Below, piece by piece: positions 1,108-18,341 of a DNA stretch of 32,000 nucleotides. Each line of letters opens with the position of its first letter. The stretch's first letter is position 1. The position numbers and the translations under genes are program-made. This DNA comes from Candidatus Saccharibacteria bacterium oral taxon 488 (GTDB lineage Bacteria; Patescibacteriota; Saccharimonadia; Saccharimonadales; Saccharimonadaceae): the NCBI GenBank assembly GCA_010202845.1, contig CP047921.1:450001-482000 (forward strand), written 5' to 3'. Under the pieces are notes generated by a model, which made no database searches, was not told where the DNA came from, and saw nothing but the letters and a program-made list of their open reading frames with translations.

Positions 1108-2046
1108 TTACACCGCAATCGGCGCCTTGATCGGTGGATGGTGTTCATACCCCTCTAGGCGAATATCATCAATGGTAAAATCGTCAATATTCTTGATGTC
1201 TGGATTCAGCCACAGTTTCGGCAGCGGCAGCGGACGGCGCGACAGTTGCTCGTCAACCTGCTGGCGGTGATTGTTATAAATATGCGCGCTATTCAGGGTG
1301 TGAACGAACTCGCCCGGCTGCTTGTCGGTCACTTGGGCGATCATGCTGAGCAGCAGCGCGTAGCTGGCGATATTAAACGGCACGCCCAGGAACATGTCCG
1401 CCGAACGCTGCGTCAGTGCCAAATCCAACTTATCTTTCTCGCCATTTTCACCCGGCCGCACATTGAACTGGAACATGGTGTGGCACGGCGGCAGCCCACC
1501 AGCTCGGGCGATATCGTCAATTTCCGCCACGTTCCAGGCGCTGACGATGTTGCGCCGCGATGTCGGATTATTCTGTATCATGTCAATAGCGTTTTGGATT
1601 TGGTCAATCGTTCCGCCCTTGCTGTCGGGCCATTTCCGCCACTGCACGCCGTAGACTGGTCCCAAGTTACCCCACGTTTCAGCAAACGTGTGATCAGTCG
1701 CGATTTTACCGATAAACTCCTTCATGCCAGCGCGCCACTCCTCACCGTTAATCTCTGGAATGCTCTGGTCAGTTTTCTCCAAATAATTCTTATACGGCCA
1801 CTCGTCCCAAATATGCACGCCGTTTTGTGCCAAATATTCAATGTTGCCGGTGCCTTTGAGAAACCACAGCAGCTCGTGCGCCACGCTAGTAAAGTACAGT
1901 TTCTTGGTAGTCATAGCCGGAAACCCGTTCGCCAAATCATACCGCGTTTGCACGCCAAACACTTCCGTCATGCCCGTGCCGGTGCGATCGCCTTTTTTCA
2001 CGCCATTATCACGGACATGCCGCAGGGCGTCTAAATATTGCCTCAT
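1108..2046 (-). CDS. thyA: thymidylate synthase (ThyA type)
   Basis: 312 aa. [11 protein letters not shown]...GDRTGTG N-terminus, catalytic-Cys motif [27 protein letters not shown] Shine-Dalgarno (SD) sequence upstream of the ATG. Confidence 0.95.
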
Positions 2047-7544: not shown

Positions 7545-7585
7545 CTCTGTTATTTTAGCAAATGGGGATGAAAAAACAGAAAAAC

Positions 7586-7681
7586 TTGACAAAAATCATT
7601 GACATTTTTTCATATAAGTGATATATATATCAGCTTTTGTTGACATAAATTTGACTTATTGTCCAAAGGCGTTCATTGACA
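7586..7681 (+). repeat. array of five TTGAC(A/T) hexamers in a 96-bp AT-rich intergenic stretch
   Basis: TTGACA at 7586, 7599, 7640 and 7676; TTGACT at 7651. Spacings are 13, 41, 11 and 25 bp. Confidence 0.8.
7599..7627 (+). promoter_or_regulatory. candidate promoter TTGACA-17-(TGa)TATATA for the small-ORF unit; implies a ~180-nt leader
   Basis: TTGACAttttttcatataagtgaTATATA. It is the only one of the five TTGAC(A/T) boxes with a well-spaced -10 box. Confidence 0.45.
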
Positions 7682-7689
7682 AGCAGACG
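7677..7689. repeat. left arm of a perfect 13-bp inverted repeat (TGACAAGCAGACG)
   Basis: It is the reverse complement of 8205-8217. A second shared block is AGGTGAGA (7695-7702) versus TCTCACCT (8182-8189). Confidence 0.85.
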
Positions 7690-7746
7690 ACACAAGGTGA
7701 GATTTTGCTTCTTTTATGGTAAGAGGCGCGAAACCTCATCTTGTGT
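7690..7746 (+). promoter_or_regulatory. 57-nt imperfect hairpin in the leader of the small ORF
   Basis: ACACAAGGTGAG (7690-7701) pairs with CTCATCTTGTGT (7735-7746): 12 bp including one G-U. An inner CTTCTT/AAGAGG helix is possible. The 3' arm can alternatively pair (GTGTG/CACAC) with 7760-7764. Confidence 0.45.
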
Positions 7747-7812
7747 GTTATAGGATTGCACACGTCCATTTATTGGATGGCATGTCGCCAAAGATGCGGA
7801 GAAAGAGCTACC

Positions 7813-8139
7813 ATGACTCACATGGTTAACATCGAAGGTATTTCACTGGCAGAAGTTCTCGCGAGGCTTTTTAACAATTCCAGGCCCGTTGGTATGGGTA
7901 TCTTCGCAGCTGCGCATGGCCCTCAAGAATTGAGCGTCGAGATGGCGCAGTCGATCATCGACGAAAAAAAGAGGAGGGGTGGGAATATCTCCTTCGACTA
8001 CCTCTTCGGGAGACCGTTGAAGGTGCTCCTCTCAACCGACCGAGAGCTGGACCCCCGGCTCTACGATCGGGACAACGGAGGCCCGGGGACGGCGGCGCGG
8101 CTCATTAGTGAGTTGCGCAGGGCCAAAGGCCTGACTTAG
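7813..8139 (+). CDS. small hypothetical protein (108 aa)
   Basis: ATG 7813 has GGAGA 10 nt upstream. The track ORF starts at an upstream TTG (7741) inside a leader hairpin. Conserved-looking core ISFDYLFGRPLKV...YDRDNGGPG. No family assignable by eye. Confidence 0.55.
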   Translation: MTHMVNIEGISLAEVLARLFNNSRPVGMGIFAAAHGPQELSVEMAQSIIDEKKRRGGNISFDYLFGRPLKVLLSTDRELDPRLYDRDNGGPGTAARLISELRRAKGLT

Positions 8140-8148
8140 TACCAGGCC

Positions 8149-8222
8149 AAGCATGACAAGTGAGCGGCGGAACACACGTTGTCTCACCTAAGACAACCCT
8201 ATCCCGTCTGCTTGTCATGCTT
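8149..8222 (+). other. 74-nt nested hairpin immediately after the small ORF
   Basis: Outer stem AAGCATGACAAG (8149-8160) / CTTGTCATGCTT (8211-8222) is a perfect 12 bp. Inner hairpin GTTGTCT-caccta-AGACAAC lies at 8179-8198. Confidence 0.6.
8205..8217. repeat. right arm of the perfect 13-bp inverted repeat (CGTCTGCTTGTCA)
   Basis: Reverse complement of 7677-7689. Together the arms bracket the 108-aa ORF. Confidence 0.85.
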
Positions 8223-8245
8223 ACCATATATCTGCATAATACCCC

Positions 8246-8266
8246 GAGGAGACATCCTCAGTTTTT
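8246..8266 (+). terminator. weak intrinsic terminator candidate after the small-ORF unit
   Basis: GAGGA-gaca-TCCTC followed by aGTTTTT; the stem is only 5 bp. Confidence 0.35.
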
Positions 8267-8276
8267 ATAGTCAAAC

Positions 8277-8306
8277 AATATAAAACGATGAGCGCTGACT
8301 CATCGT
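8277..8306 (-). terminator. intrinsic terminator downstream of tRNA-Leu(CAG)
   Basis: Reverse strand reads ACGATGAG-tcagcg-CTCATCGT followed by TTTTATATT; 8-bp perfect stem. Confidence 0.7.
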
Positions 8307-8314
8307 ATGATTTC

Positions 8315-8401
8315 TGGTGCGGATGAAAGGACTTGAACCTTCACGTACTTGCGTACACTAGCACCTGAAGCTAGCGCGTCTACCAATTCCGCCACATCCG
8401 C
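8315..8401 (-). tRNA. tRNA-Leu (anticodon CAG), type II with long variable arm, CCA encoded
   Basis: Reverse complement GCGGATGTGGCGGAATTGGTAGAC...CTAGC-TTCAGGT-GCTAG...GGTTCAAGTCC...CATCCGCACCA folds as a cloverleaf with anticodon loop TT-CAG-GT. Confidence 0.9.
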
Positions 8402-17597: not shown

Positions 17598-18341
17598 ATG
17601 GAAATAGTAGCAGTAATTTTAGTCATCGTACTGATGTTTGTGCTGAGCGGCATAAAAGTGGTCAATCAATACCAGCGCGGCGTGGTGCTGACGCTCGGTA
17701 AATTTACTGGCGTGCGCGAGCCAGGACTGCGGGTAGTGATACCAATTTTTCAGACGATGATGATGGTGGATGTGCGCTCAACGCCAATTGACGTGCCGAA
17801 ACAAGAAGTCATCACCAAAGACAACGTCACCGTCGGCGTTGATGCGGTGGTCTATTTCCGAGTGATTAACGCGCCAAAAGCGGTGCTAGAAACGACCAAT
17901 TACATTTACGCCACCAGCCAATTTGCCCAAGCTGCTCTGCGCGATGTCACTGGTAATGTCGATATGGACGACCTGCTCGCCAAGCGCGAGGAGATTTCGC
18001 AGCAAATTAAAGAAATTGTTGACGCCGAGACTGACAAATGGGGTATCGATGTTGAGAATGTCAAAATCCAGAACATTGAACTGCCTGGCGACATGAAGCG
18101 CGCTATGGCCAAGCAAGCCGAGGCCGAACGCGAACGCCGCGCCAACATCATCAACGCCGACGGTGAAAAAGCTGCCGCTGAAACACTAGCGCAAGCCGCC
18201 GAGATCCTGGCAAAAACCCAAGGCGCGATTAATCTGCGTACGCTAAATACACTGGAGCGTATCTCGACCGAACCATCACAAAAGACGATGATGCTCTTCC
18301 CGATTGAACTGATTGATGCCATTCGCGGCGGTAAAAAATAG
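17598..18341 (+). CDS. SPFH/band 7 (stomatin/prohibitin-like) membrane protein
   Basis: N-terminal TM helix, SPFH core (YQRGVVLTLGKF...TKDNVTVGVDAVVYFRV) and Ala/Glu-rich coiled coil. GGAGG SD upstream. Confidence 0.85.
   Translation: MEIVAVILVIVLMFVLSGIKVVNQYQRGVVLTLGKFTGVREPGLRVVIPIFQTMMMVDVRSTPIDVPKQEVITKDNVTVGVDAVVYFRVINAPKAVLETTNYIYATSQFAQAALRDVTGNVDMDDLLAKREEISQQIKEIVDAETDKWGIDVENVKIQNIELPGDMKRAMAKQAEAERERRANIINADGEKAAAETLAQAAEILAKTQGAINLRTLNTLERISTEPSQKTMMLFPIELIDAIRGGKK

Follow-up and report, generated by a model that had tools for sequence, protein, structure and literature searches.

The inverted repeat that encloses a small open reading frame (ORF) in the window, the stretch of 32,000 nt of Saccharibacteria DNA analysed here, probably provides, on comparative and folding evidence, both halves of a long-range RNA helix within a single mRNA. 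The unit to which it belongs follows a standard cassette design of the CPR, in which a promoter, a 5′ hairpin, a left arm, a RAGATH-10 leader, an exchangeable ORF, a right arm and a type III hammerhead succeed one another; the window copy is a hammerhead-less variant, with a local hairpin and a terminator instead. Of the readings offered in the preliminary description of this DNA, it is consequently the third, long-range 5′-3′ pairing of the mRNA in rivalry with a local 3′ hairpin, that the evidence supports, because of the covariation, the G.U wobbles of the sense strand, the fixed place beside RNA elements and the folding predictions.

The geometry described beforehand proved exact (Table 1). 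The arms are complementary at 13 of 13 positions, may be extended in a repeat search to 22 nt at 82%, and enclose one ORF of 108 aa; the second shared block is present on both sides (AGGTGAGA at 7695-7702 and TCTCACCT); the tRNA-Leu(CAG) gene lies on the minus strand at 8315-8401, 97 nt past the right arm; and 8149-8160 pairs with 8211-8222 at 12 of 12 positions, forming the local 3′ hairpin. The neighbouring ORFs correspond to trigger factor, HisRS, a TrmH-like protein and a FAD-linked oxidase. The promoter module also stands at the head of at least six small units in the same genome, and is absent from the list of a consensus scan because its -10 ends in A.

Table 1. Features of the cassette in the window (positions of the window; all on the forward strand)
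Feature	Position	Strand	Basis or remark
Putative promoter module	7586..7633	+	Read from sequence; activity predicted
TTGACA	7586-7591 and 7599-7604	+	Promoter module
Spacer of 17 nt; TG; -10 TATATA	TG 7619-7620; -10 7622-7627	+	Promoter module
Predicted transcription start	near 7634	+	
5′ leader hairpin GACATAA / TTATTGTC	7642..7663	+	Read from sequence
Left (leader) arm of closing helix, TGACAAGCAGACG	7677..7689	+	Observed
Helix A-A′, ACACAAGGTGAG / CTCATCTTGTGT, around a variable hairpin	7690..7746	+	Repeat search
RAGATH-10 RNA element (Rfam RF03147)	7730..7806	+	cmscan
Cargo ORF, 108 aa	7813..8139	+	Shine-Dalgarno (SD) GGAG at 7798-7801
Tail copy of left arm, AAGCATGACAAGTG	8149..8162	+	5′ strand of local 3′ hairpin
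Small tail hairpin GTTGTCT-CACCTA-AGACAAC	8178..8197	+	Contains block TCTCACCT at 8182-8189
Right (tail) arm of closing helix, CGTCTGCTTGTCA	8205..8217	+	Observed
Intrinsic-terminator-like hairpin GAGGA-GACA-TCCTC, then T-run	8246..8268	+	Terminator consensus match

The earlier estimate was that such a repeat should arise by chance in well under 1% of cases. When the 1.1-kb region was simulated 3000 times with a first-order Markov model, 12 runs (0.4%) contained a perfect inverted repeat of at least 13 nt with a spacer of 50-700 nt. With the same spacers the real genome, of 853 kb, holds 17 of them, so that a 13-nt repeat by itself is only mildly surprising, and its significance comes from recurrence. 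In this genome the 11-mer TGACAAGCAGA occurs six times, four of these occurrences constituting two convergent pairs around small ORFs, and in 10 of the 301 genomes of the class the exact 12-mer is found in convergent pairs separated by 214-854 nt. A second copy with a different cargo, in the same genome (G000:289.6-290.3 kb), presents in order a promoter, a leader with TGACAAGCAGA, a RAGATH-10 element (290074-290152, 55.9 bits), an unrelated ORF of 91 aa, TCTGCTTGTCA and a hammerhead. More widely, 18 distinct cassettes, drawn from Saccharibacteria, Colwellbacteria, Nomurabacteria and other CPR MAGs, have a leader/tail helix of 9-16 bp around cargo that is either unrelated or homologous, and a different 11-bp helix occupies the same leader position in a further RAGATH-10 locus, L024. 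Of the 13 loci found independently, via the Rfam RAGATH-10 model, 12 possess the helix, L025 being the one doubtful case.

These cassettes have been grouped here under a working definition, which corresponds to no published family, by a left arm 0-9 nt upstream of box A (ACAAGRUGAG) and at least 9 complementary nt past the stop codon; the window copy belongs to this class, with 13/13 pairs and a left arm that ends at 7689, box A starting at 7690. The left arm is always found 0-9 nt 5′ of box A in the 19 cassettes, and in the 14 cassettes that have a whole -10-like element inside the 60 nt shown, this element lies some 40-60 nt 5′ of the left arm, which would place both arms within the predicted transcript.

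The strands of the helix have changed together. In the cassette set, which was collected by helix search and whose covariation statistics therefore carry an ascertainment bias, 12 of the 16 helix positions are changed on both sides (29 cells), none of 500 shuffles reaches the observed covariation, and a shift of the register by 1-3 columns makes the pairing fall from 83% to 32-47%. The G063 arms TGACAGGCAATCG/CGATTGCCTGTCA, for example, are paired at 13 of 13 positions with three compensatory changes with respect to the window. The interior pairs that are not Watson-Crick comprise six G.U or U.G, one U.U and no A.C, and in the window, L020 and L040 the local hairpins use G.U pairs as well; wobbles of the G.U type without A.C are expected from selection on the sense RNA, unlike a strand-symmetric DNA site. 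With respect to the relative L031, identity is 100% for the promoter, the leader and both arms and 97% for the RAGATH-10 element, against 92.5% for the neighbouring trmH-like gene and 79% for the ORF; the ORF is less strongly constrained than the leader and the arms. The core GACAAGCAG is conserved beyond what pairing alone needs, a hint that something else also constrains it, for instance a protein that binds it, the copy of the arm in the tail or a role at the DNA level.

The second block was considered separately as a general second helix, by comparing box A with the 45 nt that precede the right arm in each of 19 cassettes, and was discarded: there was no family-wide signal, 141 of 500 shuffled tails reaching the summed score. 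Only two cassettes, those of the window (P 0.006) and L031 (P 0.018, G.U-retained), show a notable pairing of AGGTGAGA with TCTCACCT, which may be lineage-specific or due to chance. A sequestering of box A by the tail, as a control of the SD, likewise found no family-wide support in this test.

The position of the helix relative to RNA elements is fixed. On the leader side, the window element aligns with the full length of the RF03147 model (1-82) with 40.8 bits (E = 3.6e-6), 0.4 bit under the gathering score of 41.2, retaining 7 of the 8 P1 pairs and intact P3 and P4 hairpins, with a shortened P2. The conserved ends GAAACC...GGAGAAAG are present, the conserved nucleotides GAAACCUCAUCUUG...GGCAU.CGCC...GAUG.GGAGAAAG are matched, the 3′ strand carries the SD, and the small ORF follows directly downstream. 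The link of RAGATH-10 to genes that lie next to hammerhead or twister ribozymes in other places is found here as well, as homologues of the 108-aa cargo precede hammerheads in other loci (L032, L034, L036, L038, L042, L033, L035, L049 and L059). The Rfam model represents only the leader core, and the window element forms part of a larger unit: unlike in the model, the upstream box A pairs with the 5′ strand of P1 in 18 of the 19 cassettes and partly (7 bp) in the nineteenth, and the leader arm pairs with the mRNA tail. This helix A-A′, whose 3′ strand overlaps P1, has 11-12 bp with compensatory changes in those 18 cassettes and only 7 bp in L040; in the window its predicted pairing probability is 0.98. 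Further upstream, the 5′ hairpin, which is present in the arms-forced fold of the window, has a counterpart (GACAAG/CTTGTC) in the L001, G129 and G063 cassettes.

On the tail side, a type III hammerhead comes directly after the tail arm in 13 cassettes, with its core beginning 24-30 nt past the right arm, a distance at which stem III abuts the closing helix. In the window, no ribozyme family matched 7600-8320 at E <= 10, and the core CUGAUGA...GAAA that characterises this type (RF00008), with stems I-III and a cleavable NUH site past the right arm, was not found; the paralogues have the core, at 289649-289691 and 317454-317508. A decayed hammerhead at 8218-8275, suggested by the resemblance of CCGAGGAG to CTGATGAG, was rejected, its local alignment to sister hammerheads being no better than that of shuffles (447/2000 and 1955/2000). 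The place of the hammerhead in sister cassettes is taken by the terminator-like hairpin (predicted pairing probability 0.98-0.99). The tail copy of the left arm starts 9 nt past the stop codon and has analogues in other hammerhead-less cassettes (L019, L020, L040); the small tail hairpin is retained in L031 with compensatory changes. Our literature search found no mention of RAGATH-10, no published function for it, and no paper that ties hammerheads to Saccharibacteria or the CPR; 33 RAGATH members are still of unknown function (PMC11061315).

Partition functions of whole mRNAs (550-1050 nt) give the arm helix a probability of 0.76-0.99 in 11 hammerhead-bearing cassettes, and in the hammerhead-less copies, the window included, they favour the local hairpin (0-0.16 for the arms). 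In the window, the arms reach 0.16 in unconstrained folding and 0.96 once 8122-8152 is kept from pairing, with energies of -240.1 kcal/mol for the local state and -238.9 kcal/mol for the arms-forced state. The long-range pairing and the alternative local pairing of 8209-8222 with 8149-8162 are, in these models, mutually exclusive and nearly equal in predicted energy.

If the arms act in the mRNA as proposed, the transcript would run from the predicted start at a conserved strong promoter to a predicted end at the terminator, near 8268, with the leader arm some 45 nt from the 5′ end, directly before RAGATH-10, and the tail arm some 65 nt past the stop codon. Their pairing would loop out the variable coding part and bring together the conserved leader and tail. 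We infer for such a helix a stabilising, insulating or switching role in the mRNA: (i) it would close the ends of the message and protect the 3′ end made by the ribozyme or the terminator; (ii) it would insulate the folds of leader and tail from the intervening cargo; (iii) and in the window variant, it could work as a switch against the local hairpin, for which a possible trigger would be a ribosome terminating 9 nt 5′ of that hairpin. The hammerhead-less window copy keeps the leader arm perfect and swaps the ribozyme for a decoy hairpin and a terminator, which suggests that the helix has a function beyond aiding the folding of the ribozyme.

Among the alternatives, a recombination signal at the DNA level, with the arms or the flanking leader and tail as crossover points for integron-like swaps of cargo, is unlikely but accounts for several observations. 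Different ORFs sit between conserved flanks in the window, L001 and G129, one cargo family is found in the same frame across distant CPR lineages, the 108-aa protein is patchy (3 of 200 family genomes, and none of the four same-genus genomes sampled), and the content of the trmH/tRNA-Leu gap differs in each congener. The arms, moreover, are perfect Watson-Crick complements, which is equally expected of DNA inverted repeats, and the 3′ end of the cassette (8149-8222) is an imperfect palindrome that superficially resembles attC. However, homology with the four congeners stops at 7562 and resumes at 8307-8314, away from the arms; the three cassettes inspected have no integrase or transposase next to them; the wobbles are specific to the sense strand; the right arm is in a fixed register with the hammerhead, an RNA-only element; and a homologous exchange via the conserved flanks requires no inverted symmetry. 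With integron cassettes these units share small, often promoter-dependent genes of variable identity, a conserved imperfect 3′ palindrome and variable content at one fixed chromosomal site. Unlike them, each has its own promoter, a symmetry that joins leader and tail within the transcript with RNA-type wobbles, and no integrase, attI or attC core motifs: neither R″/R′ cores (GTTRRRY/RYYYAAC) in 8140-8230 nor IntI or attI were found, the neighbours being non-integrase genes. Recombination can hold for the whole cassette and yet leave the repeat unexplained.

Far less probable are the paired operators of the preliminary description, in which a dimeric or looping DNA-binding protein would repress the gene by recognising TGACAAGCAGAC on either side of it. 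The strong conservation of the core GACAAGCAG and the TTGACA hexamer (7676-7681) in the left arm would agree with such sites, but the arms vary between cassettes, even in one genome, while each pair stays self-complementary: one G063 cassette carries TGACAGGCAATCG, another TGACAAGCAG, and further variants are TGCGACAAGTAGAC, GACATGTAAATCA and CAAGTTGATTA. Both sites, besides, would be downstream of the predicted promoter, the right one past the stop codon.

The first of the earlier readings, terminal inverted repeats of a 541-bp MITE-like, non-autonomous element, is slightly less probable again and may be regarded as largely refuted. It would fit a perfect 13-bp repeat around a single small ORF with a tRNA gene nearby, and a cassette whose presence varies within the genus; but the target-site duplication that was to be looked for does not appear, since GTTCAT precedes TGACAAG... 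and TGCTTA follows ...CTTGTCA, with no common direct repeat. The segment that differs from the congeners is the whole intergenic unit (7563 to 8306-8313), 744 bp when counted to 8306, as opposed to 541 bp from arm to arm, its ends lying 114 and ~90 bp outside the arms; the promoter of the ORF is also outside. Nor did the search for extra copies and empty sites favour it: there are only two arm pairs in the genome, enclosing unrelated DNA, and no empty site ends at the arms in the four congeners. As for a chance repeat without function, to which the 17 genomic repeats lend some colour, it is refuted by the recurrence with covariation in 18 cassettes and by arms that are 100% conserved next to an ORF that is 79% identical.

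A long-range helix within the mRNA, the reading preferred here, has partial precedents. The 3′UTR of Staphylococcus aureus icaR pairs with the SD region, and in Bacillus subtilis hbs the pairing of 5′- and 3′-UTR guards against RNase Y. The likeness consists in an intramolecular pairing of leader and tail with a predicted effect on stability, translation or both; unlike these cases, the cassette pairing is portable, a module that many lineages keep around one cargo or another, leaves the SD itself uncovered, is coupled to a ribozyme or a rival hairpin, and is known here from sequence and prediction. We know of no agreed biological role for bacterial hammerheads. Those that flank single prophage genes or short blocks of them (Perreault et al., 2011; PMC3088659) resemble the sister cassettes in the type III hammerhead after a small gene of varying identity, and the cassette cargo has phage homologues. 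The cassettes differ from that system in standing singly, each with a promoter of its own, amid the housekeeping genes of CPR chromosomes, in having one ribozyme, on the 3′ side only, and a leader-tail helix that abuts stem III, and the window copy differs in lacking a hammerhead; in a term search of PMC3088659 and in the other literature searched, no mention of a leader-tail helix abutting stem III was found.

RAGATH-10 is an orphan Rfam family, and the covarying helix links its leader to the nucleotides just before a ribozyme. A testable job for both elements would be to define and protect the 3′ end of a closed message, whatever its cargo. It is possible, though on balance doubtful, that the cassettes represent an undescribed, integrase-free system of the CPR in which a constant RNA chassis, used again and again, expresses small genes of phage type acquired by horizontal exchange and the helix is the functional heart. 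The chassis would consist of promoter, 5′ hairpin, leader arm, RAGATH-10 switch, tail arm, and hammerhead or hairpin; its helix would read the state of the message, whether complete, cleaved or under translation, and would pass this on to the stability of the mRNA and to the SD-sequestering fold of RAGATH-10, and the conserved ends would serve also as homology for the swapping of cargo. The cassette illustrates how Saccharibacteria, with their reduced genomes and dependence on a host, package small phage-like genes and exchange them, and might be a source of compact natural insulator parts for synthetic biology.

The cargo of the window, finally, appears from structural modelling to be a confidently folded, uncharacterised protein of phage type. 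AlphaFold2 gives it a pLDDT of 93; Pfam, NCBIfam and PADLOC return no match, PHROG only an insignificant one (E 0.38), and the PDB neither a sequence nor a fold match, and its structural matches in BFVD are uncharacterised phage proteins (best TM-score 0.83). The earlier association with small proteins of actinobacterial phages was borne out in part, homologues being found by tblastn in Streptomyces phage Gilgamesh (gp28) and also in Dulem virus 39. The protein carries the motifs FNNSRPxGMG, FDYLFGRPLK and DRDNGGPG, and its ORF has a GC content of ~61-62%, the adjacent non-coding DNA having 34-45%.

The inverted repeat formed by TGACAAGCAGACG and its exact reverse complement is probably the closing helix, between leader and tail, of a modular small-gene cassette of the CPR, in a variant that lacks the hammerhead, with pairing at the level of RNA as the likely reason for its existence. 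Both arms lie where the preliminary description had placed them, as do the second shared block, the 108-aa ORF enclosed by the arms and the tRNA-Leu(CAG) gene neighboring the right arm. Taken alone, such a repeat is only mildly improbable, since, of 3000 Markov-simulated versions of the region, 12 held a perfect inverted repeat of at least 13 nt with a spacer of 50–700 nt, and the genome, a single contig of 853,179 bp, contains 17 of them; its significance is its recurrence, and not the repeat by itself.

With a near-consensus promoter on one side and a terminator-like hairpin on the other, both arms fall inside one predicted transcription unit, the left one about 45 nt past its start and the right one about 50 nt short of its end. 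The RAGATH-10 element directly 5′ of the ORF scores 40.8 bits against an Rfam threshold of 41.2 (E = 3.6e-6). As to base composition (7900–8199), the GC content is 61–62% in the ORF, 34–45% in the adjoining non-coding DNA and ~50–60% in the neighboring genes.

Features of the cassette and its surroundings in window coordinates, with identity to the related MAG locus L031
Feature	Position	Strand	Remark	Identity
Promoter	TTGACA 7599-7604, 17-nt spacer, TG-n-TATATA ending 7627	+	near-consensus; 5′ of left arm	100%
Leader				100%
Left arm	7677-7689		TGACAAGCAGACG	100%
Second block, leader copy	7695-7702		AGGTGAGA
RAGATH-10	7730-7806	+	Rfam; Shine-Dalgarno in 3′ strand	97%
Shine-Dalgarno GGAG	7798-7801	+	ahead of ORF
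Start-codon hairpin	7808-7826		ACCATG-ACTCA-CATGGT; CCATG...CATGG in L031
108-aa ORF (cargo)	7813-8139			79%
Tail				86-98%
Second block, tail copy	8182-8189		TCTCACCT
Right arm	8205-8217		reverse complement of left arm	100%
Sigma-70-like match	8212-8240	+	TTGTCA-17-CATAAT (10/12); overlaps right arm; such matches in the region not above shuffles
Terminator-like hairpin, T-run	8246-8268	+	3′ of right arm
tRNA-Leu(CAG)	8315-8401	-
trmH-like gene				92.5%
14-nt perfect inverted repeat	713-726 / 1225-1238		GCCGTCCGCTGCCG; arms ~500 nt apart
18-nt perfect inverted repeat	17827-17844 / 18149-18166		TCACCGTCGGCGTTGATG; 304 nt apart, within 247-aa ORF (17598-18341); longest in window

The order of the window cassette is repeated elsewhere in the same genome. 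The sole other RAGATH-10 (290074–290152, minus strand, 55.9 bits) is preceded by the same promoter module and by a homologous leader with TTGACAAGCAGA, and is followed by an unrelated 91-aa ORF, TCTGCTTGTCA and, immediately after, a complete type III hammerhead (GTTCGC-UC-stem I-CUGAUGAG-stem II-CGAAA-GCGAAC). A third unit (C1:317400–318100, minus strand) comprises the promoter module, an ORF, the right arm (GCTCTGCTTGTCATG) and an intact type III hammerhead, and has neither left arm nor RAGATH-10; around its right arm, a GCGAAC/GTTCGC hairpin competes with stem III of the hammerhead. Of the six genomic occurrences of the 11-mer TGACAAGCAGA, four make up the two convergent pairs of the window cassette and the 290-kb unit, one is the right arm of the third unit and one falls in a coding region.

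In relatives, cassettes were gathered by three routes: through cargo-protein homologues in collections of genomes and metagenomes, through Rfam RAGATH-10 matches across 150 family genomes, and at the syntenic site of four congeners. A leader-tail helix of 9–16 bp is present in 18 distinct cassettes from Saccharibacteria, Colwellbacteria, Nomurabacteria and other CPR MAGs, and in 13 of these the hammerhead core starts 24–30 nt 3′ of the right arm, so that stem III abuts the helix. No hammerhead was found in four lineages (the window type, the congeners G129 and G063, and UBA6040), where a tail copy of the left arm and the right arm make up a local hairpin, with an intrinsic terminator behind it. 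Among the loci picked by RAGATH-10 alone, without a helix criterion, 12 of 13 have the helix (L025 is doubtful), including L024, with a wholly different sequence (CAAGTTGATTA/TGATCAACTTG). Of 301 genomes of the class, 10 contain the exact 12-mer as a convergent pair with a spacing of 214–854 nt; three of the ten are congeners with the 529–531-nt spacing of the window at the syntenic position. Hammerheads flanking variable genes in prophages are described (PMC3088659); no mention of a leader-tail helix was found in the searchable literature on RAGATH-10 and gene-flanking hammerheads.

That the arms pair as RNA, one of the readings in the preliminary description, is supported by covariation and by G.U pairs. 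When the two arms are aligned over 18 rows, both sides change at 12 of 16 pairs (29 cells), a covariation that none of 500 shuffles reached, although, the cassette set having been assembled by seeking helices, these statistics are biased upward; sliding the register lowers pairing from 83% to 32–47%. Examples are the leader/tail arms of G063 (TGACAGGCAATCG/CGATTGCCTGTCA), L034 (TGCGACAAGTAGAC/GTCTACTTGTCGCA), L036b (TGACAAACAGAGA/TCTCTGTTTGTCA) and L028 (GACATGTAAATCA/TGATTTACTTGTC). Of the interior pairs that are not Watson-Crick, six are G.U or U.G, one is U.U and none is A.C, and G.U pairs are also used in the local hairpins; in a strand-symmetric DNA site, A.C would be expected as often as G.T. 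The arm core GACAAGCAG is conserved beyond what pairing alone needs. The alternative of paired operators flanking the gene, like that of simple homogenization, is argued against by G063, whose two cassettes have arms unlike each other, yet each pair is self-complementary.

Nor are the arms the terminal repeats of a MITE-like element, since no target-site duplication flanks them, the promoter is located outside them and the edges of the variable unit lie elsewhere. The match to the four congeners ends at 7562 and restarts at 8307–8314, and therefore the variable unit is the whole 744-bp intergenic cassette (7563–8306), with edges 114 bp and ~90 bp beyond the arms. The variable hotspot is the interval from the trmH-like gene to tRNA-Leu(CAG), which in the four congeners spans 1.9–3.1 kb and has different content in each: a cassette with different cargo adjoining tRNA-Leu in G129, another cassette plus extra genes in G063, and unrelated genes in G165 and G189. 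In G129 the promoter module beside trmH is retained, followed by a tRNA gene and other genes. The cargo protein was found in just three of 200 additional family genomes and in none of the four congeners sampled; the cassette is thus exchangeable in its entirety, and the arms do not bound it. In L031, whose cassette occupies the matching site with a cargo 80% identical in protein, the arms are better conserved than the ORF, the reverse of the pattern that the preliminary description had set against its proposal.

In the leader, box A (ACAAGRUGAG), 3′ of the left arm and shortly before the Rfam model, pairs over 11–12 bp with the 5′ strand of RAGATH-10 P1 (CUCAUCUUGU) in 18 of 19 cassettes (only 7 bp in L040), with compensatory changes in L001, L021, L033 and L034. 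The Rfam model pairs this same strand with the 3′ strand containing the Shine-Dalgarno; RAGATH-10, which the searchable literature treats as no more than an orphan motif (PMC11061315), therefore seems to form the core of a bigger structure made of three strands, one of which has two alternative partners. The arm helix would stack directly on the box A helix. Sequestering of box A by the tail, implied by the second shared block, lacks family-wide support.

Competition with the local hairpin, also proposed earlier, is seen in folding predictions. In 11 hammerhead-bearing cassettes of 550–1050 nt, the arm helix has a partition-function probability of 0.76–0.99, whether the RNA is modeled uncleaved or cleaved, and the hammerhead fold is undisturbed beside it. 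The minimum free energy fold of the window transcript (7634–8268; -240.1 kcal/mol) contains the local hairpin (probability 0.81, against 0.16 for the arms); forcing the arms costs only ~1.2 kcal/mol (-238.9), and keeping 8122–8152 unpaired, approximately the stretch that a terminating ribosome would cover at the stop codon (8137–8139), raises the arms to 0.96. The remaining hammerhead-less cassettes are similar (local hairpin 0.87–1.0). The two structures are thus predicted to be mutually exclusive and finely balanced. With less confidence than the pairing itself, we suggest that the helix may protect the 3′ end, insulate the leader and tail folds from the variable cargo, and act as a switch against the local hairpin.

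No Pfam, NCBIfam or PADLOC family matches the 108-aa protein, its one PHROG match is insignificant (E 0.38), and PDB yields neither a sequence nor a fold match. The 83 homologue clusters of the protein all have invariant FDY-GRPLK and DRDNGG-G motifs, and its nearest named homologue belongs to ‘Candidatus Saccharibacteria bacterium oral taxon 488’. The AlphaFold2 model is alpha/beta and confident (pLDDT 93), and its BFVD matches are uncharacterized phage proteins (top TM-score 0.83). The kinship with actinobacterial phages and plasmids suggested earlier is partly borne out by tblastn matches in Dulem virus 39 and in Streptomyces phage Gilgamesh (gp28, with a tyrosine integrase gene a few genes downstream). 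Outside the CPR (Micavibrio and Clostridia MAGs), the cargo gene has neither arms nor hammerhead, and so the frame is CPR-specific and the cargo broader.

The promoter module heads at least six small units in the window's genome. Two more of these (C1:366900–367620 and 320200–320900, minus strand) look like a second chassis type, with a different leader common to both, in which a hairpin GCTCAAAG...CTTTGAGC encloses GGGCGGAAGTCGCCC, a conserved tail CCCACCGAAAATAGC...GGTGGGCTATTTTC, and small, hydrophobic-looking ORFs.
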